In this document: in pieces, positions 2-10,063 of the stretch
How the letters are laid out: the number at the start of each line of letters is the position of its first letter
How positions within the stretch are numbered: position 1 is the stretch's first letter
Source: Candidatus Thorarchaeota archaeon
GTDB taxonomy: Archaea; Asgardarchaeota; Thorarchaeia; Thorarchaeales; Thorarchaeaceae
DNA length: 10,110 nt
Reading direction: 5' to 3'
Assembly: GCA_048882325.1 (NCBI GenBank)
Contig: JBHLRS010000007.1
Coordinates: 113,895 to 124,004 of the forward strand
Notes under the pieces: model-generated
What the model was told of the DNA's origin: nothing
The model's input: the letters and a program-made list of their open reading frames with translations, nothing else
The model's database searches: none
Program-made: the position numbers and the translations under genes

Positions 2-49
2 CATGACGTAGACCATGACATGGATCATGACGTAGACCATGACATGGAT
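2..49 (+). repeat. Perfect 24-nt tandem repeat (catgacgtagaccatgacatggat) x2, plus a partial third copy (catgat) at 50-55. It encodes the (HDVDHDMD) repeat inside the NfeD-like CDS.
   Basis: Bases 2-25 and 26-49 are identical by direct reading. The repeat runs off the 5' edge of the window, so more copies may lie upstream. Confidence 0.9.
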
Positions 50-610
50 CATGATGTTCCAGACGACAAGTCTGGAATTGTAGAGCACAGCCATGAATTA
101 GATGTCGAACATGACATACCGCATGTCAAGTCAGGATTCTTTGAAACAGAGAGAGGAGCCCCGATGGGCGTCACAATTGGAACCTCACTCGTGACATTCG
201 GATTCCTCGGATCCATCATTTATTATGAGGGGGTAGTGTTCCCACTCATTGGCAAACTAGCGGTTCATATTGTCAGTGTTGCAGTCATGGTCTATGGGGT
301 TCGCACTGTACTGAGAAAGGCATTTATCGAATCCGGATTTATGATAGAACCGAGACATCTTGTCGGAAGAGAGGTTAAGGCAGTTTCAACAATCAACGAT
401 GGTTTTGGTGAGGTCAGACTCGAAACTGAGATGGGCCTTCGTCGCTTCCATGCCAGACCGTTTCAGAAGGGAGTTGTGTTTCAGAAGGGAACTGACCTCT
501 TCATAGTTTCTGCGGATGATAAGTTCGTCTATGTTGATCCACGTAAAGATGTAGTTAAGTGGCTCTATAAGCAGAGTAAGAAACCAAAGGAATCTAAAAA
601 GAAAGAATAG
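2..610 (+). CDS. NfeD-like membrane protein, short form, 5'-partial. An N-terminal His/Asp-rich repeat region is followed by 2 TM helices and a C-terminal OB-fold.
   Basis: The frame is open from base 2 to the TAG at 608-610, with no upstream stop in the window, so the gene probably starts before the window. The first in-window ATG is at 20. The hydrophobic stretch GVTIGTSLVTFGFLGSIIYY...VHIVSVAVMVYGV is consistent with two TM helices. The C-terminal part (EPRHLVGREVKAVSTINDGFGEVRLE...GTDLFIVSADDKFVYV) has the soluble beta-barrel/OB pattern typical of NfeD/YuaF-type proteins. The gene lies directly upstream of an SPFH/flotillin gene, which is the canonical NfeD-SPFH pairing. Confidence 0.7.
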   Translation, partial: HDVDHDMDHDVDHDMDHDVPDDKSGIVEHSHELDVEHDIPHVKSGFFETERGAPMGVTIGTSLVTFGFLGSIIYYEGVVFPLIGKLAVHIVSVAVMVYGVRTVLRKAFIESGFMIEPRHLVGREVKAVSTINDGFGEVRLETEMGLRRFHARPFQKGVVFQKGTDLFIVSADDKFVYVDPRKDVVKWLYKQSKKPKESKKKE

Positions 611-820: not shown

Positions 821-2152
821 ATGCAAGCAAGTATAATGGACTGGTTCGCAAATAACCTCGCTTTGTCCATAGGTCTTTTGATAATAGTCTTGATATTACT
901 CGGAATGATCTATGTCAGAAAGTATGTCCGAATATTTGACCCAAACATCTTCTACGTACACCTGCGACGTGGCAAAGCCATAAAGCAAGGTGAGGGTGGT
1001 ATGGTCATTCGAGTTCCTTTCTTCGATCGCATTCTCGCTGTCGATAGAACTGTACAGCAGTTGAATATATCAGCTGAGTCAGTACTGTCAAAAGAGAAAC
1101 AGAAGATTCGATTGAGTGCTGTTTTGCAGTGGCAAGCAGAAAATGCTATCGCCACTATCAACAACGTCACATGGAAGGAGATTCCAAGTAGACTGACCGC
1201 TATCATCGAATCGGTCATTCGTACGGCATGTGCGCAGCTATCAGTTGAGGAAATTCTAGAAGAACGTCAATTGATCATCGAGGCTATCAAGAAAGAGCTC
1301 ATAGATATCGTGTCAGAGTGGGGTTTGAAGGTAGTAACCGTTGAGCTGGTCGATGTTGTCGTTGTTAACGAGTCATTCCTGAGAGACATGTCAAAACCAC
1401 GTGAGGCAGAAATGCACCGTCTGGCTCAGATTGCGCTCATTGAAGCTGATCAGGCCACTGGTACAAGGGATATCGAGAGAAGCAAGGTGCTTCGTGAACA
1501 GGAAATTGCTCGTGACAAACTGATTGGTGTGCAGGAACAAGAGCAGCTTCGTCACATACAAGAGGCTGAGAAACAGCGTGAACAGAGTGTACTGGAAATA
1601 GCCCTTCAGAAGGACCTAATGCAAAAGAAATATGAGAAGCAACAGGCGGAGGTCGAGGCTTCTAAAGACCTTGAGGTTGCCAAGTTAGGTGCTGAAGCTG
1701 AGAAGCAGCGTAAGATTAAGCAAGAGGTCGAAGTACAAGCACAGCGGATTGTTCAAGAGGCAAAAGCTGAAGCTGACAAGATAAGCATGGTCGCTGAAGC
1801 TGAAGCTGGTCAGATCCTTAAGGTCACAAGTGCTCAGGCTGAAGGTATCAAGAAAACTCTTGAGGCTGCTCGTGACTATTCACCACAGGCCTTTGCTAGA
1901 GACTTCCTTCAGATTCTACCTGAAATCTACAAGCAGATAGACATCGGTGATGTCACACTGTTTGGCGGTGGTGCTGGTGGAGCTGGCCCAGAAGGTGAGG
2001 AAGGTGGAGGCGGAGCTCAAGCATTCCAAGTGTTCGGAAACGTACTCATCCCTATGATGCTCATGGCTCGGATGATGGGTTTTGACTTCAAAGGTCTCAT
2101 GAAGGACGCACTGGGTGACATGGGTACAGACGAAAAGTCTAGTCAGAAATAG
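821..2152 (+). CDS. SPFH/Band-7 family protein, flotillin-like (FloT/YqiK-type). It has an N-terminal membrane anchor, an SPFH domain, a long Glu/Ala/Lys/Gln coiled-coil and a Gly-rich tail.
   Basis: The ATG at 821 is preceded by gaaggaaaacag, an SD-like GAAGGA about 7 nt upstream. The N-terminal hydrophobic helix is LALSIGLLIIVLILLGMIYV. The SPFH core is ...IRVPFFDRILAVDRTVQQLNISAESVLSKEKQKIRLSAVLQWQ.... EA-rich heptad repeats (AEAEKQRKIKQEVEVQAQRIVQEAKAEADKI) are typical of flotillins. The tail is Gly-rich (GGGAGGAGPEGEEGGGGA). Confidence 0.9.
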   Translation: MQASIMDWFANNLALSIGLLIIVLILLGMIYVRKYVRIFDPNIFYVHLRRGKAIKQGEGGMVIRVPFFDRILAVDRTVQQLNISAESVLSKEKQKIRLSAVLQWQAENAIATINNVTWKEIPSRLTAIIESVIRTACAQLSVEEILEERQLIIEAIKKELIDIVSEWGLKVVTVELVDVVVVNESFLRDMSKPREAEMHRLAQIALIEADQATGTRDIERSKVLREQEIARDKLIGVQEQEQLRHIQEAEKQREQSVLEIALQKDLMQKKYEKQQAEVEASKDLEVAKLGAEAEKQRKIKQEVEVQAQRIVQEAKAEADKISMVAEAEAGQILKVTSAQAEGIKKTLEAARDYSPQAFARDFLQILPEIYKQIDIGDVTLFGGGAGGAGPEGEEGGGGAQAFQVFGNVLIPMMLMARMMGFDFKGLMKDALGDMGTDEKSSQK

Positions 2153-2233: not shown

Positions 2234-2473
2234 TTACTTTACACGTCTGATGAACCAAACCAATTTATCGCCTTCCTCAACGAGTTCAATGATCTCATTC
2301 CCAGTTCTATTGGACCAAGATGGGAAATCTTTCTTTGTTCCTATGTCAGTGGCGATAACCTTCAGGATCTCACCAACTTGAATTTCTTGGATCTCTTTCT
2401 TTGTCTTTAGGATAGGCATTGGGCATCGGAGCCCACTTGCGTCAAATACTCTTGCTACTTGGTGCTCGGTCAT
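2234..2473 (-). CDS. tusA: TusA-like sulfur-carrier protein (SirA/YedF/YeeD family) with a CPxP active-site motif.
   Basis: The 79-aa product aligns motif by motif with E. coli TusA as I recall it. The segment ...FDASGLRCPMPIL... matches the TusA segment LDALGLRCPEPVM. The segment ...GEILKVIATDIGTKKDFPSW... matches [20 protein letters not shown]. The size, about 80 aa, is typical. Confidence 0.85.
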   Translation of the reverse strand: MTEHQVARVFDASGLRCPMPILKTKKEIQEIQVGEILKVIATDIGTKKDFPSWSNRTGNEIIELVEEGDKLVWFIRRVK

Positions 2474-2605
2474 GGTAAATCGCCTTTCGTCGAAAACTGA
2501 CGTGTTTTATTCCTTTCTATGCGACAGTGATACTGAACCATCTAAGATATGTGCATGTACAAAATTCCTGCACCACAACCAGACCCGATGTTCCTTTTCA
2601 GACAA

Positions 2606-2625
2606 ATTTATTAATTATTATCAGG
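2606..2625 (+). promoter_or_regulatory. A/T-rich TATA-like box (aaatttattaattattat) about 30 bp upstream of the ATG at 2653. It is a candidate promoter for the membrane-protein/DsrE-like operon, in the divergent region shared with tusA.
   Basis: TTTATTAATTATTA lies 28-45 nt upstream of the ATG at 2653, and the ATG is preceded by caggtgacc (AGGTGA, SD-like). The spacing fits an archaeal TATA box with a short-leader transcript. A bacterial -10 reading is also possible. Confidence 0.3.
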
Positions 2626-2652
2626 CGGATTGCAAAAATACAGGTGACCAAA

Positions 2653-3051
2653 ATGGCCTTGTTCCAACTAATCTTGTTCGTCCTCTTCTCACTAAACCTA
2701 AGCGTGATGTTCTCGGGCTTATTGTTGGCTAGGAGGATGGGCTTCTATTTGATGCCGCAGGTCATGATGCTCATGCTTGGCATGTTTGTTGGCATTGGTG
2801 TACTACTAGTAGGACTCTTCTTGCCAACTTTCGCTATAGCTGGAGTCGATCTGCTCTTCATACTACTAATCGTGGACCTTGTACTGATACTTTTGGCGGC
2901 TCTGATGCAGTTCCTTCAGGTGTTGCCAATACTCATGAAGACTATGCAGGGCGGTCCATTCCATAGCTCACACATCACCAACCTCTTGGTGACCCTGTTC
3001 TTGCTTATTGGATTGGTGCTCTACTACGTTGACTTGGTTGCACTACCATAG
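2653..3051 (+). CDS. Hypothetical small integral membrane protein, about 132 aa, with 4 predicted TM helices and no cysteines.
   Basis: The ORF is open from 2527, but the first 42 codons run through the A/T-rich promoter-like region. An ATG at 2653 with an upstream AGGTGA is the more plausible start. There are four hydrophobic segments. A VDL motif recurs in helices 2/3/4 (GVDLLF, IVDLVL, YYVDLV). The gene ends 13 nt before the DsrE-like gene, which suggests an operon. Confidence 0.5.
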   Translation: MALFQLILFVLFSLNLSVMFSGLLLARRMGFYLMPQVMMLMLGMFVGIGVLLVGLFLPTFAIAGVDLLFILLIVDLVLILLAALMQFLQVLPILMKTMQGGPFHSSHITNLLVTLFLLIGLVLYYVDLVALP

Positions 3052-3064
3052 GAGATGAAATGAT

Positions 3065-3430
3065 ATGGCAAACAAACTTTACATAATCGGGCAGTGGGGC
3101 CCTGAAGCTGCTGAACGGTGCTACGGCCCATTCGTCACTGGAACCACTGCACAGGCTCAGGATGTCGAAGCAAACATCTTCCTTATGATGGATGCTTGCA
3201 TGCTAATGAAGAAAGGTATGGCTGAGAAGGTGAAAGCCCCAGGTTTTCCACCACTCCCTGACCTGATTGATGCTTTCCTAGAAGCAGGTGGTAAAATCCA
3301 AGTCTGTTCAAACTCCGTTGAGTTTAGGGGCATTAGTCAGGAAGACTTGAGAGATCCCAGAATCGAGATTGCTGGTGCAGCCACCATGATCGATGATGCT
3401 CTCAATCATGACACAGTAATGACTTTCTAG
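3065..3430 (+). CDS. DsrE/YchN-like (DsrE/DsrF/TusD superfamily) sulfur-relay protein, 121 aa.
   Basis: GGAG at 3051-3054 sits 10 nt before the ATG. The product aligns with E. coli YchN as I recall it. FLMMDAC matches FLMSDAV, KIQVCSNSVEFRGIS matches VKLCKTCTDGRGIS, and the C-terminal ...VMTF matches ...VLTF. The conserved Cys is in the 'VCS' position. Confidence 0.75.
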   Translation: MANKLYIIGQWGPEAAERCYGPFVTGTTAQAQDVEANIFLMMDACMLMKKGMAEKVKAPGFPPLPDLIDAFLEAGGKIQVCSNSVEFRGISQEDLRDPRIEIAGAATMIDDALNHDTVMTF

Positions 3431-3440
3431 AGAATGTTAC

Positions 3441-3472
3441 TGAGGGGTTTACCCCTCACACTTCTTCTTTTT
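3441..3472 (+). terminator. Intrinsic-terminator-like hairpin plus T-tract downstream of the DsrE-like gene.
   Basis: TGAGGGG-ttta-CCCCTCA is a perfect 7-bp stem with a 4-nt loop at 3441-3458. It is followed by cacTTCTTCTTTTTc at 3461-3472. The structure lies in the 56-nt convergent spacer before the kinase stop. Confidence 0.55.
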
Positions 3473-3486
3473 CAGAAATAAATTAA

Positions 3487-5271
3487 CTACACAAAATCAG
3501 GATAACAATTAGTCATGAGGAGATTCAAGACCGAACTCCTGATTGCACCTTCGGAGATGAAACCAGTCAGTTCACGCTCACAGATCTTGATGTAGGGCAA
3601 CATAGGAAGTTCTTCAGTATTAACATCGACATCTGGATCATCGACATTGATTGTTTCAACCATGCTCCGAGGGACACCCATTGAGTCCAGTACAGCAGTT
3701 AAGATTTCCATAGCAGGATCACAGAAAACACAATGATTAGACTTGAAAAAGGTGATGCAAGTGTTACGCCCACAATGGAGTTCGGGAGCTTCTATCCACA
3801 GAGGTAGTAGCAAAATAAAACGAGCACCTTGAGAATGGACTCCATTTACTCGGTCTTCCACACGAATCTTGCCCCCGATGTTCTTTACAATCCTGTCAAC
3901 AAGTGTGAGACCAAGACCTCGGCCAACAATCTGCTCATCGGGGCTACCTGTTCTTCTGAAAATGAACTCCTTGGCACTATCAGGCACTCCCGGTCCCTGG
4001 TCAATGAACTCAATTCGAAGCATCTTCACTTCATCAGCAACCTCCGCTTTGACTTCCACCACAACATTGTCATGCTCGTCAAATGTCATTGAGTTGTGAC
4101 TTATGTTGAAAAACACCTGCTCCAGATACTGGTGCCCCGCTACGTCAAATTTCCCTTTCTCGATATTCGTAGTCAAACTAAGAGTCTTCCAAGGGAAGTC
4201 TGCTTTGACTCGTTCAAGGGAGGACTGAAAGTAATCATAGATGTCAACCTTGGTTCTTGTTGGTGGGTCATTAGCCAGTCTGAAGAGTGACCTTAGATTC
4301 GCCACCATCCTTGCAGCACGTCTGACATTCCAGCTCGACTCGTGCAATAAGGGGCGATACTGTTCGGGGATGTCTTCTGAGTTCTGCAAAAGACCTGTTG
4401 AGAACAACAGACTCTGATTCACGTTATTGAGATCATGAGTCATAACTTCCAGATACAGGTTTGCGCGATCACGTTCAGTCTGCTCCCTTGCTTCCGCATT
4501 CTTTCGCCGATCAATATCTAGAGCCATCAAAGCGATTGTTGAGGATTGGTCAGGATACTCAAGTAGGTTTGCTGTGACACTTACCCAGTTCGAGCGTCCG
4601 TCTGCAGTCTTCATCTGCATCTCAAAGTCTTCTACACTCTTTCCGTTTGCTGCTTCAGAAATCATTTGACCTACGATTTCTTTAGCAGTACCGTTGGGCA
4701 GAAAGGATGAGAAGTTCCTCCGAAGTAAATCCTCCTCTTTGTATCCTAAAAGACGAGTTGCTGCTTTGTTCACTTGCAAAACATTACCCATTAGACTCAG
4801 TGAAAAGTATGCGATTGGTGAAGAATCGAAAAGTGCACGGTATCTACTCTCAGAAGCGTCAATTGCCGCCTCAAGCTCAACTTGTCTAGTAACGTTTCTC
4901 ACAATGCCCATAATGGCTGGTTTTCGCGAGAGAGCGAAGTCTGAGGTACTGATCTCAACGTGGATCACATCTCCATTCTTCTTTAGAAACCGTGCCCTAA
5001 ATGCTGGTCGACCACTCTGTCCCCAGTTGAAGCCCTCTTGGACCTCAGTGAACTGATGCGCAGTCGTAGGCTCGAGAAGATCTGTTATGGGTTTTCCTTC
5101 AAGACTAGCGAAGTCGTATTCCATCATTTCAAGAAATGCTGGATTCGCCATGATGATTCTATCATCCTGTAAGATGATAATTCCATCATTCGCCAACATC
5201 ATCATGCCAAAGTACTCATCTTCGACATTGGTGGCGTTCTTGTTTTGTTGACCCTGCAACTCGTATTTCAC
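3487..5271 (-). CDS. Sensor histidine kinase. It has two PAS domains, a HisKA-like DHp with an H-box at H279, and a HATPase_c domain, fused in frame to a C-terminal thioredoxin-fold domain carrying C-x4-C-x9-C-x2-C.
   Basis: PAS-like blocks span about residues 25-127 and 138-257. The H-box is EVMTHDLNNVNQS, with the His codon at 4435-4437. The N-box is FFNISHNS, G1 is IDQGPGV and G2 is GRGLGLTLV. The HATPase domain ends at ...ARFILLLPL. The chain then runs directly into WIEAPELHCGRNTCITFFKSNHCVFCDPAMEIL...VETINVDDPDV...LPMLPYIKICERELTGFISEGAIRSSVLNLL. That tail follows the beta-alpha-beta/CxxC layout of small archaeal thioredoxin/glutaredoxin-like proteins (compare the Methanocaldococcus Mj0307-type sequence ...FTSPMCPHCPAA...INV..NP...VPTIVING...FIG...). 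The first codon is GTG at 5269-5271, immediately after an in-frame TAG. An alternative ATG start is the MMM triplet at 5197-5205. Confidence 0.8.
   Translation of the reverse strand: MKYELQGQQNKNATNVEDEYFGMMMLANDGIIILQDDRIIMANPAFLEMMEYDFASLEGKPITDLLEPTTAHQFTEVQEGFNWGQSGRPAFRARFLKKNGDVIHVEISTSDFALSRKPAIMGIVRNVTRQVELEAAIDASESRYRALFDSSPIAYFSLSLMGNVLQVNKAATRLLGYKEEDLLRRNFSSFLPNGTAKEIVGQMISEAANGKSVEDFEMQMKTADGRSNWVSVTANLLEYPDQSSTIALMALDIDRRKNAEAREQTERDRANLYLEVMTHDLNNVNQSLLFSTGLLQNSEDIPEQYRPLLHESSWNVRRAARMVANLRSLFRLANDPPTRTKVDIYDYFQSSLERVKADFPWKTLSLTTNIEKGKFDVAGHQYLEQVFFNISHNSMTFDEHDNVVVEVKAEVADEVKMLRIEFIDQGPGVPDSAKEFIFRRTGSPDEQIVGRGLGLTLVDRIVKNIGGKIRVEDRVNGVHSQGARFILLLPLWIEAPELHCGRNTCITFFKSNHCVFCDPAMEILTAVLDSMGVPRSMVETINVDDPDVDVNTEELPMLPYIKICERELTGFISEGAIRSSVLNLLMTNCYPDFV
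3490..3798 (-). other. C-terminal Trx-like domain of the histidine kinase (residues about 492-594), containing CVFC plus an upstream HCGRNTC pair.
   Basis: Domain boundaries come from counting codons from the start at 5271. The W492 codon maps to 3796-3798. There is no internal start, RBS or stop between the HATPase domain and this domain, so it is a genuine in-frame fusion in the sequence as given. Confidence 0.6.
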
Positions 5272-5388: not shown

Positions 5389-5438
5389 TTTTATAGTGTA
5401 CAAGAAAACATTTTAACATTTGAACAAACGTTGAAATG
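5389..5438 (+). promoter_or_regulatory. Candidate promoter and operator for the arsR-like/ATPase operon. It has a TATA-like TTTTATAG at 5389-5396 and an imperfect 10-2-10 inverted repeat at 5417-5438 that overlaps the first ATG.
   Basis: TTTTATAG lies about 40 nt upstream of the ATG cluster at 5436-5453. The inverted repeat is CATTTgAACa-aa-cGTTgAAATG, with 8/10 positions complementary. A direct repeat AACATTT is at 5407 and 5416. TGAAC...GTTCA-like cores are typical of ArsR/SmtB operators. Confidence 0.3.
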
Positions 5439-5777
5439 ATGTGTGGCATGATGGCAGCAGTTAAACGCAATGCTAAGACAAAAATTGAATTCAAAGAGAA
5501 CGAACTGGAAGATGTACTCGATATCTTCCGAGCGCTATCAGATCATTCAAGAGTTAGGATAATATCTGCACTCACAAGTCAAGAAGAACTCTGTGTTTCA
5601 GATATAGCAGATTTGTTGGATATGCCAATCAGCCGTGTGAGCCATCATCTGAGTACGTTGAAGATGTTAGGCTTTGTGAGAGCAAAGCAGGATGGAAAGC
5701 AAGTTTTCTACAGTATAGAAGATGACTGTATCACCGATATCATGAAGAGGGCATTGGATCATGTCGCAGGAAACTGA
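5436..5777 (+). CDS. ArsR/SmtB-family metalloregulatory transcriptional repressor.
   Basis: The winged-HTH block is ELCVSDIADLLDMPISRVSHHLSTLKMLGFV, with the ELCV(S/C)D alpha3 signature and the recognition helix SHHLxxL. The C-terminal ...YSIEDDCITDIMKRALDH aligns with the CzrA/SmtB alpha5 metal site (YSLGDEHIRQIMMIALAH). Several in-frame ATGs at 5436, 5439, 5448 and 5451 leave the exact start ambiguous. The 3' end overlaps the ATPase start by 17 nt. Confidence 0.85.
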   Translation: MMCGMMAAVKRNAKTKIEFKENELEDVLDIFRALSDHSRVRIISALTSQEELCVSDIADLLDMPISRVSHHLSTLKMLGFVRAKQDGKQVFYSIEDDCITDIMKRALDHVAGN

Positions 5778-7674
5778 ACATACGTGTGCCACCTGCGTCG
5801 CTTCTGCTGGTTCAGAAACACGCAAACCGAAGCGCTATAAATACAGAATGGCAGTCTTATCGGCATCTATGCTTGTCCTAGGGCTCCTTCTACATTTTAC
5901 TGGTTTTAATATTGCAATCATTTATGCAGTCTTTCTCCTTTCAATGCTTTCCGCTGGACAATTCATCCTACCTCGTGGAGCAAGAGGACTGGCTCAACTT
6001 AGACTTGATATGCATTTCCTAATGTCAGTGGCTTCAATTGGAGCATTCATCATTGGAGCACCAGCCGAAGGTGCCGCAGTCATGTTTCTCTTCTTCATTT
6101 CAATGCTTTTAGAGGAACGAGCAGAGGATCAGGTGAAGAAAGAGATCCATGAACTTGTTGAATTAGAACCTCCTTCAGCCACCATTAAGATGAGCAAAGG
6201 TGCTGAAGCGTTAATCCCAACATCAGAGGTTAGAGTTGGAGACACACTCATTATTCGTCCAGGTACAAGGATTGGACTTGACGGAATAGTTGTCTGTGGT
6301 CAGAGCTATGTAAATCAAGCACCGATTACCGGAGAGTCTCTTCCAGTTTCAAAGTCAGAAGGAGACAAAGTCTACGCAGGGACCATCAATCAGGAGGGAT
6401 ATCTAGAAGTTGAGGTGACCTCTGAGGCACACCATACAGTTCTCTCAAGGATAGTCGAGCTCGTTGAGGAAGCCAAAAACAAGAAGGCACCGACTGAGCA
6501 ATTAATTTCAAGGTTCTCTAGAAGATATACACCTGTAATGGTAACACTGACCATCCTCTTGGGTGTGGGTTCATTCCTTCTAGGTGCATCCATAACCGAA
6601 GCAACTTATCGAGCATTAACTCTCCTAGTGATTAGTTGCCCATGCGCATTTGTTGTTTCAATACCAGTAAGCATGGTTTCCTCCATTGCGGGATCTGCTA
6701 GAGATGGGGTTCTCGTAAAAGGTGCCATCCACATAGAACAGACAAGTAAAACGAAATCCGTAGCATTTGACAAAACTGGAACGCTTACTGAAGGTGTTCT
6801 TTCTGTAAAAGATGTCTGTCTACACAACGACCACTCACGAGACGCTGTGTTAACAGCTGCAGCTACACTTGAGCAGAAATCGGAACACCCCATTGCAAAG
6901 GCCTTAGTTGCTGCGACTGAAGCGGAGGCCTATCAACTTCCCGATGCTGAGGGTTTCTCCGCAATACCAGGAAGAGGGGTTGGAGGACAGATAGGTGACA
7001 CAAAATACTTCGTTGGTAATCGAAGACTATTGACAGAGCAAAACATCACATTGGAATCTATAGCTGATCACTCCTGTGGGGTCGGCACCATGGTTTATGT
7101 TGCCCAAGAGCGCGAGCACCTCGGAACTATTGTCTTGGCAGACTCTCTCAGAAATGGTGCAATTGAGGCTGTTGAAGAGTTGAAGCGAATGGGAATAGAC
7201 ACCGTGATGCTTACTGGTGACAGTGAATCTGTAGCAATGGAGATTGCTGAAGAAGTTGGGATCGACCGATACATAGCAGAACTACTTCCTGATGAGAAGG
7301 TTAGAGCCATAGAAGAACTCTCAGAGAGAGGTTCTTCAATAATGGTGGGAGACGGAATAAATGACGCACCTGCTCTTGCCGCAGCTGATGTTGGTATAGC
7401 AATGGGAGCAGTGTCCTCTGATGCAGCAATAGAAACAGCGGATATTGCCCTTATGCAACAAGATCTTAGAAAGATTCCCTCGCTTATCAAAAAAGCTAAG
7501 AAGACAATGACAATTGTCCGTCAAAACATTGCAATTTCGATTTCAATTAAACTTCTAGTTGGAATTCTCGCAGCTTTTGGACTAGTGAATCTTTGGATTG
7601 CGATTGGTGTTGGTGATATGGGTTTGACATTTGCAGTTATTGCGAACGCATTACGACTTGTTCGGAAGCAGTAA
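5761..7674 (+). CDS. P1B-type heavy-metal-translocating P-type ATPase, probably Zn2+/Cd2+/Pb2+ (P1B-2-like). It lacks a canonical N-terminal HMA domain.
   Basis: CPC is in a TM helix (LLVISCPCAFVVSIP, codons at 6637-6645). The phosphorylation motif is FDKTGTLT, with the Asp codon at 6769-6771. SEHPIAKAL is the HP motif. The hinge motifs are MLTGDS and GDGINDAPAL. The last helices are ...RQNIAISISIKLLV... and ...IAIGVGDMGLTFAVIANALRLV. The conserved Lys and Asp there are characteristic of ZntA/CadA-type pumps rather than the CopA-type MxxSS. The N-terminus has only a short HTCATC CxxC. Confidence 0.85.
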   Translation: MSQETEHTCATCVASAGSETRKPKRYKYRMAVLSASMLVLGLLLHFTGFNIAIIYAVFLLSMLSAGQFILPRGARGLAQLRLDMHFLMSVASIGAFIIGAPAEGAAVMFLFFISMLLEERAEDQVKKEIHELVELEPPSATIKMSKGAEALIPTSEVRVGDTLIIRPGTRIGLDGIVVCGQSYVNQAPITGESLPVSKSEGDKVYAGTINQEGYLEVEVTSEAHHTVLSRIVELVEEAKNKKAPTEQLISRFSRRYTPVMVTLTILLGVGSFLLGASITEATYRALTLLVISCPCAFVVSIPVSMVSSIAGSARDGVLVKGAIHIEQTSKTKSVAFDKTGTLTEGVLSVKDVCLHNDHSRDAVLTAAATLEQKSEHPIAKALVAATEAEAYQLPDAEGFSAIPGRGVGGQIGDTKYFVGNRRLLTEQNITLESIADHSCGVGTMVYVAQEREHLGTIVLADSLRNGAIEAVEELKRMGIDTVMLTGDSESVAMEIAEEVGIDRYIAELLPDEKVRAIEELSERGSSIMVGDGINDAPALAAADVGIAMGAVSSDAAIETADIALMQQDLRKIPSLIKKAKKTMTIVRQNIAISISIKLLVGILAAFGLVNLWIAIGVGDMGLTFAVIANALRLVRKQ

Positions 7675-7680
7675 GAGAAA

Positions 7681-9258
7681 CTACTTGTAAGTATTAAGAG
7701 CACGAACCGAAGCTGCCAAGAAGAAGTAGACTATTGATAGTGTGAAGACAGGGAGTATAATAATCACTAGAATGCTATCTGCAAAAATAGCGATTAAAAA
7801 CACCATAATTCCTCCCAAACCTAGGTTTATGATTGGGAAGGAGAATGCTAGGGGAACTGGAAGTGTCTTTGGATCATTTGTCATCACAGGTATGTAAGCA
7901 CCTACTGCACTCCCTGTGGATGCGAATAGGATTGACAACGGAGCAGCAAGTGTGATGACTGCGAGATAGCCTTCAATATGAATAAAGTATACCAAGAACC
8001 CGCAAGCAGGAATCACAGTAATGACCACTTCAAAGAGACTCAAAAGATATTTGGAAAGAACTATGTCTCTCGAGCGAAAAGGCGATGCCTTGAGTAGGTA
8101 TACATTGTCACGTTCATCAACAAAACTCAGCATCGAAGTGACACTAGCCATTTGTATGAAAAGTATCATCATCAGAATGAATGCTGGAACAAGTGCAAAT
8201 GCCAGACCTATAGGAACGTTAATTGCTGGAAACCAGATTGGTCTTACAAAGTTTAGGTAGAACACGAAGATAGTTCCAAAAACTGCATAGACATATTTCC
8301 ATATCTGCATGGGCGACCTTAATCTACTCCAGAAATCCTTCATCATAATCCATAACATCGGGTCATTAAATCGAGATTGAGAAAAGTCAACCTCACCTCT
8401 GATAACTCTACTGAATCGGCCCTCGGTCTGTACTCTTCCTTTGCTCGCGGAGTAGAGCTCATAGTATTCGTAGTTAGTCAAATTAGCTGTGAGTAGTAAG
8501 CTGATGATGAAACCAATCATAATAAAGACCATGCCATAAAATGGCGGAATCTCTTGAGAGAATAGACCAGTGAATTCAGTCACAAAGAGAATAAACGCGT
8601 TAGACGGTGCAATATAGGTAGCTGCCATATTTGATAGAACCCACGGATGAGCTGGAAGGATTGTCAAGACTCCTAATATGACCACAATAAGGTGACGTAC
8701 TCGACGCTGAGACTTCTTTGATATCCATAACCGAACATAGGAACTTATTGCCCCAAGGAGATAGTTAGTTTCAAAGAAAATGATGACTACAATCAATAAA
8801 GAAACAGCTGCGAAGAATAGAAGACTTGCTGAAATTATAAGGGGAAAGATAGAGAGGATGCCTAAAATCAGGAAGGATATCTTCCTGATGATCCGTCTTG
8901 AGTATCGACTTAGAAAGATCTGATGTGGTTTGACGGGAGCAGACATCATCAAACTCTCATCTACATCACTCAATACAGCTGCAGGACCAAGTCCGAAATA
9001 GCCACTCACCACCGATGATGCACTCAAGACAGCTGCAGCTGCAAAGACCATGTTGGCATCAAGAGTATCTTCAAGCAGTGTGCTAAAGTTGTAAAGCAGA
9101 GGTGCGAAGGTTACGAAGCTCGTTATCACAGAACTGACAAAGAAGATTCCACAGAATGATACCCCATAGAATAGGAGCATTGAAGGAGTAATAATAGCTG
9201 ATTTGAATTGATTATACAACATGCGTATCTCATTTTTCATGAGTTTGTATGTTGTCAA
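7681..9258 (-). CDS. Polytopic membrane permease (525 aa, about 10-12 TM). It is the probable ABC-2-type transporter permease partner of the upstream ATPase.
   Basis: The product is highly hydrophobic, with many predicted TM helices across two halves. The start at 9258 is 13 nt downstream of the ABC ATPase stop on the same strand. I recognised no specific family signature by eye. Confidence 0.65.
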   Translation of the reverse strand: MTTYKLMKNEIRMLYNQFKSAIITPSMLLFYGVSFCGIFFVSSVITSFVTFAPLLYNFSTLLEDTLDANMVFAAAAVLSASSVVSGYFGLGPAAVLSDVDESLMMSAPVKPHQIFLSRYSRRIIRKISFLILGILSIFPLIISASLLFFAAVSLLIVVIIFFETNYLLGAISSYVRLWISKKSQRRVRHLIVVILGVLTILPAHPWVLSNMAATYIAPSNAFILFVTEFTGLFSQEIPPFYGMVFIMIGFIISLLLTANLTNYEYYELYSASKGRVQTEGRFSRVIRGEVDFSQSRFNDPMLWIMMKDFWSRLRSPMQIWKYVYAVFGTIFVFYLNFVRPIWFPAINVPIGLAFALVPAFILMMILFIQMASVTSMLSFVDERDNVYLLKASPFRSRDIVLSKYLLSLFEVVITVIPACGFLVYFIHIEGYLAVITLAAPLSILFASTGSAVGAYIPVMTNDPKTLPVPLAFSFPIINLGLGGIMVFLIAIFADSILVIIILPVFTLSIVYFFLAASVRALNTYK

Positions 9259-9271
9259 TCCAGTACACCCC

Positions 9272-10063
9272 CTACTCTGGAATCCCGCCAGTCAGGTGCA
9301 GAAATATCTCTTCAAGGTTAGAAGCACTAGGGAATAGACGCTTCATCTCATCATAAGTCCCTTTTCCAACTACGTCACCCTCATGCATAATCACAAATCT
9401 GTCACAGAGATCAGCCGCAACCTCCAGAATGTGAGTAGATATCAGGATGGCTGAACCCTGGCTTCTTAACTTACGGAGATGCTTCTTAAGGTTCCATGCA
9501 CCGCGTGGGTCAAGTCCGTATATGGGCTCATCAAGCGCCAGAATGTAAGGAGGTTCTCTCGTGAATATACCAATTAGTAACGCCCGTTGCAGATTACCTT
9601 TGGACAAGGTTCCGATGTAACTATCAATGAACTCATCGAAGTGAAACAATTCTACGAATTCTCTCATCCTAATAAGAGCAATGTCTTGAGGAACACGATA
9701 AATACGGGAAGTGAACATAACATACTCCCGTGCCGTGAGACTCGGGTAACAAGTTGGCTTCTCTGGTATGTACCCGATACGTTCCTTTGCAGCAATTGGC
9801 TCTTTCTTGATGTTGAACCCATCCACCTCGATATGCCCACTTGTGGCTTGGATTATCCCTGTAAGCATCCTAAGGGTCGTTGTCTTTCCAGCGCCGTTTG
9901 GCCCTACAAGACCTACAATTTCACCAGGTTCTACTTTCAGGTCTAGCTTACGAACTGCAATTTTCTTGCCAAACCGTTTGGAAACTTGTCTGAGTTGAAT
10001 AGCAGGAGATTTTAACTTGACAGGAATTTCAGATTCTTTCTCTTTCTTCTCCAACTCTTTCAT
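9272..10063 (-). CDS. ABC transporter ATP-binding protein (ABC-2/DrrA-like subfamily).
   Basis: Walker A is GPNGAGKTT. The Q-loop region is ERIGYIPE. The signature-like motif is LSKGNLQRALL. Walker B is ILALDEP and the H-loop is ISTHIL. The frame stays open upstream of the ATG at 10063 all the way to the window edge, so the true start may lie beyond 10110. Confidence 0.85.
   Translation of the reverse strand: MKELEKKEKESEIPVKLKSPAIQLRQVSKRFGKKIAVRKLDLKVEPGEIVGLVGPNGAGKTTTLRMLTGIIQATSGHIEVDGFNIKKEPIAAKERIGYIPEKPTCYPSLTAREYVMFTSRIYRVPQDIALIRMREFVELFHFDEFIDSYIGTLSKGNLQRALLIGIFTREPPYILALDEPIYGLDPRGAWNLKKHLRKLRSQGSAILISTHILEVAADLCDRFVIMHEGDVVGKGTYDEMKRLFPSASNLEEIFLHLTGGIPE

Follow-up and report, generated by a model that had tools for sequence, protein, structure and literature searches.

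We report here a three-gene module in a Thorarchaeota (Asgard) metagenome-assembled genome, and propose that it works as a membrane-docked relay that hands sulfur from a DsrE-like protein to a TusA-like carrier. The module occupies positions 2234-3430 of a 10.1-kb stretch of DNA, the whole of which is referred to here as the window, and consists of a tusA gene and, divergent from it, a gene for a small membrane protein with four transmembrane segments (4-TM) followed by a dsrE-like gene. There is good support for the view that these genes form a conserved cassette for sulfur trafficking with a membrane component of its own, and to the specific reading as a membrane-docked DsrE-to-TusA relay we assign a probability of about 0.55. 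An earlier note on the window had described a TusA with a CPxP motif that is transcribed divergently from a 4-TM plus DsrE-like two-gene unit; all three genes are indeed present where it had placed them, and its general idea of a sulfur-trafficking cassette is upheld by the conserved homologues and the strong synteny with dsrE and tusA. The module comprises the following features.

2473..2234, minus strand: tusA, 79 aa (Pfam PF01206, RCPMP motif)
2474..2652, no strand: divergent control region, 179 bp between tusA and the membrane gene
2653..3051, plus strand: 4-TM membrane gene, 132 aa (by homologue starts and hydropathy)
3049..3064, plus strand: membrane gene/dsrE junction, TAG, then GGAGATGA, with a 13-nt spacer
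3065..3430, plus strand: dsrE-like gene, 121 aa (Pfam PF02635)
3441..3473, no strand: hairpin and T-rich tract between the convergent dsrE and histidine-kinase genes

The membrane gene-dsrE pair across Asgard relatives

The neighbourhood of the module was compared across 49 loci from a scan with one genome per species (GTDB), in which the neighbouring genes were scored by tblastn with the window proteins and by blastp on open reading frames (ORFs). Thorarchaeota and Promethearchaeota account for nearly all of these loci, one of which carries the label Hermodarchaeota. One locus (L009) stops inside the membrane gene, which leaves 48 of the 49 informative for the adjacency of dsrE, and in all 48 of these dsrE lies directly 3′ of the membrane gene. 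Upstream DNA is present in 45 loci, and all of these but one, L044, have a divergent tusA on that side of the membrane gene (44 of 45). Conservation of this neighbourhood was a test that the earlier note had set in advance, and its outcome favours the cassette, with conserved 4-TM homologues as well as conserved neighbours. Divergent members of the 4-TM family, as far as 21-31% identity away, were looked up singly, outside the 49-locus scan, and each of them has a dsrE next to its gene, this DsrE always belonging to one clade with an AER[CS] motif. The Asgard pair as defined here combines a 4-TM protein whose loop 1 contains R-x-G and whose loop 3 contains M-Q with an adjoining DsrE that has GPExAER[CS] and [IVL]C[SE][NQ]S..FR. 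This signature is kept throughout the genome loci and the look-ups, and the window shows it with ARRMG and KTMQG in the 4-TM protein and with GPEAAERC and VCSNSVEFR in DsrE.

The pair persists through at least eight gene contexts, three gene orders and a full turnover of the flanks. Loci of type A resemble the window, with its kinase/ArsR/ATPase side, which in about 14 loci of type B is swapped for a convergent operon of DsrE/TusD-like, DsrF-like and DsrH genes (Pfam); other loci with unrelated flanks around the module also exist. The arrangements other than type A include the following.

Type-B trio, convergent: L001 (6825-7863), L004, L015-L019, L021, L023, L024, L027, L031, L040, L048
Hodarchaeales L002, L058, L060-61: tusA-FlpD-HdrA-like operon divergent from membrane gene-dsrE-Lrp/AsnC regulator
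L062: membrane gene-dsrE-Lrp/AsnC regulator with a divergent tusA; FlpD/HdrA not called
Heimdall-type L052/53 and Promethearchaeota L054/55: membrane gene-dsrE, no tusA nearby
Hodarchaeota L057: membrane gene-dsrE-tusA-NarI/DsrM-like-two CCG/DsrK-like genes, on one strand
L056 and L063: tusA-dsrE-dsrE-membrane gene, with the order of the pair reversed

Therefore, because the pair is kept at 21-31% identity in unrelated Hodarchaeales, Heimdall and Promethearchaeota contexts and even in reversed order, its synteny argues for the membrane-docked relay, and so do the neighbours in relatives, namely the DsrE/F/H-like trio, the tusA-FlpD-HdrA-like operon and the NarI/DsrM-like and CCG/DsrK-like genes. 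The conserved unit is the membrane gene plus dsrE, and tusA is a frequent third partner in three arrangements.

Several of these contexts have features of their own. The type-B trio, as judged from its genes, probably represents a DsrEFH/TusBCD-like complex in Asgard genomes; its DsrE/TusD-like gene carries FQACGLCTSARGF, and about half of the type-B loci encode a 99-aa protein without family match between dsrE and DsrH. In the Hodarchaeales operons (L002, 1-5388; L058, 1-3261; L060, 1-4773) tusA comes first and is followed by FlpD (MvhD-like) and two large FAD/4Fe-4S HdrA-like proteins, and an Lrp/AsnC-type regulator lies directly 3′ of dsrE in the Hodarchaeales, L052/53, L059 and L062. The L057 locus (GCA_016840025.1, 3604-8038), whose homology was confirmed by hhalign at 99%, is an apparent single operon that includes a NarI/DsrM-like cytochrome b and two CCG (DsrK/HdrD-like) genes, and it suggests that the module feeds a membrane-bound DsrMK/HdrDE-type reductase in the Hodarchaeota lineage. 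As for the two loci with reversed order, a protein of about 450 aa without family match is encoded directly after the 4-TM gene in L056 (5368-6723), the ORF in the corresponding slot of L063 (2567-2992) runs into the contig end, and the first DsrE paralogue of L056 is Cys-rich (VSCCG, QVCLCVESEVC).

The three proteins and their control signals

The DsrE-like protein is recognized by Pfam PF02635 (E=7.1e-15, 55.6 bits against a gathering score of 22.7), and its best match by sequence among Protein Data Bank (PDB) entries is 3MC3 (SSO1125; E=5.2e-10), with the active-site Cys aligned. Its AlphaFold2 (AF2) model, with a predicted local distance difference test score (pLDDT) of 95.7, is placed by Foldseek at a TM score of 0.85 to 3MC3 (27% identity), 0.82 to YchN and 0.80-0.81 to DsrEFH chains, matches to SSO1126, DsrEFH (2HY5) and TusBCD (2D1P) being found as well. 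SSO1125 is the structural archetype of DsrE3A (PMC4175335; PMC11094781). The active Cys, on whose presence in an alignment the earlier note had made its interpretation depend, is Cys81 in the sequence I-Q-V-C-S-N-S-x-x-F-R; all 58 of the 58 relatives retain it, it falls on the VC of 3MC3 in the alignment, and it is the counterpart of the family's single conserved sulfur-binding Cys, which is Cys78 in DsrE and Cys93 in DsrE3A. A second one, Cys19 in G-P-E-x-A-E-R-C, is present in 54 of the 58 and is replaced by Ser in one Heimdall/Hodarchaeales clade, and SSO1125 has Thr at the equivalent position. The Cys-X7-Cys motif that defines DsrE3A (PMC4175335) is absent, position 89 being Gly in the window and K/R in the distant relatives shown. 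The suggestion of the earlier note that the membrane gene and dsrE may be a split DsrE2 is not supported, as the window DsrE scores 35.3 bits on the NCBIfam DsrE2 model (NF047629) against a cut-off of 210 and aligns to model positions 86-157 only, the C-terminal half, while the membrane protein has no match anywhere in this model and the nearest solved relative of DsrE is the DsrE3A protein 3MC3. The protein is thus DsrE3-like and belongs to a clade of its own, which has so far been met in Asgard genomes only, rather than to DsrE3A or DsrE2.

The TusA protein matches PF01206 over 67 of 70 model positions (E=9.3e-22, 77.1 bits against a gathering score of 28.6), so that both Pfam searches proposed in the earlier note, for TusA and for DsrE, ended above the cut-off. 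Its motif is R-C17-P-M-P, with Cys17 kept in 98% of 45 relatives; the role of the CPxP motif with its sulfur-binding Cys in TusA has been described (PMC11094781). The nearest solved relatives are Ta1170 (1PAV) and E. coli TusA/YhhP, the PDB entries being 1PAV, 1DCJ and 3LVJ. On the NCBIfam equivalog model of E. coli TusA (NF001423) it reaches 50.7 bits, below the cut-off of 78, and the window protein is thus a family member but not an E. coli TusA equivalog. The tusA gene appears to be monocistronic.

The third protein is the membrane protein, which is 100% identical to NCBI ACFFE2_05125 (Candidatus Thorarchaeota archaeon). Its true start is the ATG at 2653, because the homologues, 310 of which were found, are nearly all of about 131 aa and all begin with MALFQ; a GTG-started ORF (2527..3051, 174 aa) is ruled out as the gene model by the same MALFQ Met. 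Hydropathy and composition give four hydrophobic segments, no Cys and 8.3% Met, in line with the description of a small, Cys-free protein in the earlier note. Divergence at codon positions 1/2/3 among 40 orthologues is 0.35/0.14/0.56, and therefore the protein is under purifying selection and the gene is a genuine coding gene. When 1.84 billion cluster representatives were searched with a profile, nine matches came up at E<=0.001, among which a Thor-type cluster, two divergent full-length clusters and three longer fragments are genuine and one is a 34-residue fragment, and P0238 (1164 aa) and P0243 were rejected as spurious repeat translations; a profile of the Asgard family reached no additional relatives among these representatives. 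A further profile search added 23 divergent members, of which the named ones are Hodarchaeales, Heimdallarchaeota or Promethearchaeota. Judging from these searches, the family is a narrow one, with all named members so far Asgard.

As to its wider kinship, the search of the 4-TM protein against domain families that the earlier note had proposed gave Pfam DUF5400 (PF17379) as the only family match, on which the protein of the window stays at 18.8 bits, below the cut-off of 25, but orthologues with 64-72% identity and the divergent P0244 (P0060, P0112, P0244) reach 31-34 bits over nearly the whole model. The family would accordingly be an Asgard branch at the edge of DUF5400, weakly related to it. 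No mention of DUF5400 was found in the literature library searched, no NCBIfam model matched the protein, and its Pfam search returned no transporter family at E<=0.1 and no Sulf_transp match. The AF2 model (pLDDT 93.4) is a compact generic four-helix bundle that resembles ROP and tetraspan scaffolds most closely, rather than transporters.

The conservation of the membrane protein is concentrated in two loops, A-R27-R28-M-G30 (loop 1) and K96-T-M98-Q99-G-G-P-F-H104-S-S-H107 (loop 3). Family-wide invariance is limited to five residues, two in loop 1 (R28, G30), two in loop 3 (M98, Q99) and L94 at the end of helix 3; G100 and H104 are nearly invariant. The protein has only three positive charges (R27, R28 and K96), all in loops 1 and 3, so that by the positive-inside rule these loops would face the cytoplasm, with the N and C termini outside. 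That the family-wide invariants sit in or next to the two loops that hold all the positive charges argues for the membrane-docked relay. The polar residues Q36, D66 and D75 within the membrane are invariant in the Thorarchaeota subfamily and lost in the Hodarchaeales/Heimdall subfamily. The latter instead has a conserved Cys in loop 3 right before M98-Q99 (F-R-C-M-Q-G; Thr97 in the window; P0246, P0247, P0252, P0253, P0256, P0258, P0260 and P0261 in the alignment), which is a further point in favour of the relay; and therefore the Cys-free character holds for the window protein, not for the whole family. A conserved site that faces the cytoplasm seems to fit docking of, or chemistry with, a soluble partner better than a conserved transmembrane pore. 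Four loci with the membrane-loop Cys carry Ser in place of Cys19 in DsrE, and a strict compensation between the loss of the one and the gain of the other was considered and ruled out, since L002 carries both cysteines.

Several sequence signals accompany the genes. The control region contains a TTTTAT box at 2505-2510 (ATAAAA read on the tusA strand), a conserved 16-nt TGTTCCTTTTCAGACA block at 2589-2604 just upstream of an A/T-rich TATA-like box at 2607-2621, and a GGTGA Shine-Dalgarno sequence at 2643-2647, 5 nt before the ATG of the membrane gene. The 44 aligned intergenic regions, in which 114-239 nt (median about 184) separate tusA from the membrane gene, show conservation of the A/T boxes on either side, of a TGTTCCTTTTC(A/C)GACA block and of the GGTGA Shine-Dalgarno. 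The region probably acts as promoter region for both units. The TGTTCCTTTTCAGACA block, which recurs in many Thorarchaeota loci (e.g. as TGTTCCTTT in 12 of the 44 intergenic regions), could be a regulator-binding site or an extended B recognition element (BRE). At the junction, the TAG of the membrane gene (3049-3051) and the ATG of dsrE (3065) are 13 nt apart, and the Shine-Dalgarno sequence GGAGATGA begins at the final base of the stop codon, which agrees with the 13-nt gap with an intervening ribosome-binding site in the earlier note. The TAGGAGATGA junction is present in most of the 50 measured pairs (the 49 loci and the window), with spacers of 7-29 nt and a mode of 10. A Shine-Dalgarno on the stop codon with a short spacer is a sequence signature of putative translational coupling in one operon, and its conservation likewise argues for the membrane-docked relay. 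The hairpin TGAGGGG-TTTA-CCCCTCA after dsrE has a predicted folding energy of -16.7 kcal/mol (z=-2.85 against shuffles) and, with its T-tract, is likely the transcript end. An Rfam scan of the window gave no match.

A proposed membrane-docked relay and its alternatives

Based on these findings, we propose the following mechanism. The tusA gene and the two-gene operon of membrane gene and dsrE would be transcribed divergently from the shared 179-bp control region, and the membrane protein and DsrE would be translationally coupled and so produced together. The soluble DsrE3-like protein, expected to be a homotrimer as is DsrE3A, would dock on the 4-TM protein at the latter's two conserved loops on the cytoplasmic side (ARRMG and KTMQGGPFHSSH), and at the membrane Cys81 of DsrE would acquire sulfane sulfur as a persulfide or thiosulfonate. 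DsrE would then pass the sulfur to Cys17 of TusA, the direction known in vitro for DsrE3 proteins, and TusA, to judge from the adjacent genes of relatives, may supply DsrEFH/TusBCD-like, FlpD/HdrA-like or DsrMK-like complexes as downstream users. The relay reading also draws on the established transfer from DsrE3 to TusA and the trimers of DsrE3A (PMC4175335; PMC11094781). The 4-TM protein would be the anchor of this relay, or possibly also a conduit.

Several observations weigh against this proposal. The synteny is for the most part that of a single class, Thorarchaeia, and lacks phylogenetic independence. Because tusA is absent near the pair in L044 and L052-L055, TusA is not obligatory. No fusion of the membrane protein with DsrE occurs among about 430 homologues, and the fold search of the membrane protein, a generic bundle, brought no informative relative. 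Finally, Pfam and NCBIfam identify no downstream sulfur enzyme inside the 10-kb window, where the neighbours are instead SPFH, histidine kinase, ArsR and P1B ATPase genes.

The alternative that survives best, possible although clearly less probable than the relay, is that the 4-TM protein forms, as an oligomer, a channel or transporter which passes thiosulfate, sulfite, polysulfide or HS- straight to DsrE and TusA, i.e. a functional analogue of YeeE(TsuA)-YeeD(TsuB) that is unrelated in sequence. Such a conduit would account for the strict pairing of the 4-TM gene with a cytoplasmic sulfur carrier, for the conserved Arg, Gln and His at the cytoplasmic mouth of the protein and for the intrahelical Q36, D66 and D75 of the Thorarchaeota subfamily; helix 2 also has a small-xxx-small motif that could aid oligomerisation, and the window TusA is weakly similar (E ~1e-4) to the YeeD domain of 8K1R/8J4C. 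However, only loop residues are invariant family-wide, Q36, D66 and D75 not being kept in Hodarchaeales/Heimdall; the window protein has no Cys relay and matches no Pfam transporter family at E<=0.1; and its compact bundle is unlike transporters. On the NCBIfam YeeD model (NF041048) the window TusA scores 17.9, far below the cut-off of 147.5. The analogy to the YeeE-YeeD pair, which the earlier note had offered, is not supported and breaks down on each feature that could be compared.

A more tentative extension of the relay, which we consider rather doubtful, makes the 4-TM protein an active part of a hitherto unrecognised sulfur entry point in the membrane, met so far in Asgard archaea only, and not a passive anchor, wherein its cytoplasmic R/MQ/H loop would capture sulfur that is membrane-borne or imported (S0, polysulfide or thiosulfate) and load Cys81 of DsrE, and TusA would feed Hdr/Mvh-type or DsrMK-type complexes. 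It is in this same loop that the Heimdall/Hodarchaeales subfamily carries a Cys.

The next alternative appeals to the genes around the module in the window, which are listed here.

20-610, plus strand: 196-aa protein, no family match, His/Asp repeat MDHDVDHDMDHDVPDD at the N-terminus
821-2152, plus strand: SPFH/flotillin gene, the upstream flank, convergent with tusA
5271..3487, minus strand: histidine kinase, two PAS domains and HATPase_c (Pfam)
5436-5777, plus strand: ArsR/SmtB metalloregulator, 17-nt overlap with the P1B ATPase start
5761-7674, plus strand: Zn/Cd/Pb-type P1B ATPase (TIGR01525, 571 bits)
7681-9258, minus strand: 525-aa polytopic membrane protein, no Pfam or NCBIfam match
9272-10063, minus strand: DrrA-like ABC ATPase, upstream of the 525-aa polytopic membrane protein

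The 196-aa protein occupies the slot before the SPFH/flotillin gene where NfeD usually sits, and the two are kept as a pair upstream of tusA in type-A loci. The pair of ArsR/SmtB and P1B ATPase is conserved in type-A loci only, and the ATPase gave no match to an N-terminal heavy-metal-binding domain. The 525-aa protein is presumably an uncharacterised ABC-2-type permease, and it is conserved in 21 loci (cluster 5). The earlier note had taken the adjoining gene, as a histidine kinase with a thioredoxin (Trx) domain, to strengthen a thiol theme. The kinase is real (PAS-PAS-HATPase_c), but its tail is sub-threshold as a Trx domain: the C-terminal ~100 aa (3490-3798, minus strand) make up an additional domain whose CVFC motif stands in a beta-alpha setting of Grx/Trx-like type, for which the Pfam Glutaredoxin/Glrx-like matches stay at about 14.7 bits against 22.9. 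About 33 of the 49 loci have a clear relative of the kinase next to the module, in about 24 of them immediately downstream of and convergent with dsrE, and this kinase is absent from the remaining contexts, so that this neighbour is lineage-specific.

It is unlikely that the pair has a role other than sulfur relay, tied to these ArsR/P1B-ATPase and kinase neighbours, be it metal handling through Met/His-rich motifs or thiol-peroxide defence. Such a role would agree with the Met-rich composition of the membrane protein and its conserved M98 and H104, with the ArsR gene, the Zn/Cd-type P1B ATPase and the CxxC-tail kinase that adjoin the module in roughly one half to two thirds of the 49 loci, and, for peroxide defence, with the JGI label of the DsrE as 'predicted peroxiredoxin'. 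However, the pair persists in type-B, Hodarchaeales, Heimdall and Promethearchaeota contexts from which ArsR, P1B ATPase and kinase are absent; the membrane protein shows no known Cu/metal motif pattern, its invariants being R, G, L, M and Q and not a His/Met cluster; DsrE retains its sulfur-binding Cys; TusA is the recurrent third partner; and the relatives have DsrEFH-like and Hdr-like neighbours. Least probable of all, and hardly tenable, is that the adjacency is merely inherited gene order without functional coupling, the 4-TM gene being an unrelated small membrane protein upstream of dsrE, since, although most of the 49 loci are Thorarchaeota/Promethearchaeota and many share also the SPFH, kinase and ArsR-P1B flanks (phylogenetic inertia), the pair outlasts complete flank turnover, sequence divergence and a change of order, its overlapping Shine-Dalgarno is conserved, and each look-up of a family member gave an adjacent AER[CS]-clade DsrE.

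The significance of the proposed membrane-docked relay depends on the role of the membrane protein. The pair with its distinct DsrE clade spans Thor-, Hermod-, Hod- and Heimdall-type genomes and is in some linked to DsrEFH-like, FlpD/HdrA-like or DsrMK-like genes. Should a physical complex underlie the pairing, this would give a function to an uncharacterised DUF5400-related family, define a new DsrE subgroup, and provide a testable component for the sulfur metabolism of hydrogen-sulfur syntrophy models of Asgard archaea. Were the membrane protein only an anchor, this would be a modest addition to a known system; more interesting would be an active sulfur entry point tied to Hdr-type energy metabolism, by which H2 or quinone redox chemistry would be coupled to sulfur reduction in a lineage related to the eukaryotic host.

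Comparison with known sulfur relays

The module most resembles the DsrE3A-TusA system (Metallosphaera cuprina; SSO1125, 3MC3) and the DsrE3B/DsrE3C-TusA pairs of sHdr systems, as in each a small soluble DsrE with a sulfur-binding Cys is encoded beside a CPxP tusA, and relatives of the window module adjoin Hdr-like genes. DsrE3A proteins are trimers, and DsrE3 proteins bear a persulfide or thiosulfonate on their conserved Cys that is passed preferentially to TusA (PMC4175335; PMC11094781). However, the window DsrE lacks the Cys-X7-Cys motif of DsrE3A and has its own conserved Cys19 in GPExAERC; the 10-kb window contains no dihydrolipoamide dehydrogenase, lipoate-binding-protein or hdr-like gene, Hdr-like neighbours occurring only in Hodarchaeales relatives; and the obligate 4-TM gene partner is not described for DsrE3. 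DsrE2A, from rhd-tusA-dsrE2 clusters, is alike in being a TusA-linked DsrE with a proposed membrane association, namely as membrane anchor of sHdr, although its transmembrane helices are now doubted, which also counts against the split-DsrE2 idea (PMC11094781). It differs in that the window DsrE fails the DsrE2 model and the membrane element here is a separate conserved 4-TM protein.

In the thiosulfate uptake pair YeeE(TsuA)-YeeD(TsuB), too, a membrane protein is encoded together with a TusA-like carrier or is fused to one. YeeE itself is a large transporter of many helices that works through conserved cysteines; in contrast, the window membrane protein has 132 aa, four helices and no Cys, and its fixed partner is DsrE, not TusA. 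The DsrEFH/TusBCD heterohexamers, to which TusA is the sulfur donor, share the DsrE fold with the window protein, as the Foldseek matches to 2HY5 and 2D1P show. They differ from the module, wherein no DsrF/TusC or DsrH/TusB partner is encoded in the window, and since a separate trio adjoins the module in about 14 relatives, the window DsrE is distinct from an E/F/H-like component. Small proteins of about four transmembrane segments that accompany a sulfurtransferase or a sulfur-oxidising subunit are known from the mycobacterial DoxX-SseA and from DoxD of thiosulfate:quinone oxidoreductase; the window membrane protein has no Pfam match to DoxX or DoxD at E<=0.1 and no sign of quinone binding.

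TusA/DsrE relays have been well studied in sulfur oxidisers, and we know of none in which a gene of its own encodes a dedicated membrane subunit. For a cultured Asgard archaeon, a route from TusA/DsrE to Hdr has been put forward, and the consulted passages of that preprint mention no membrane partner for it (bioRxiv 10.1101/2025.07.22.663070). In conclusion, the module would work like the DsrE3/TusA relays, to which it adds a membrane partner without characterised counterpart.

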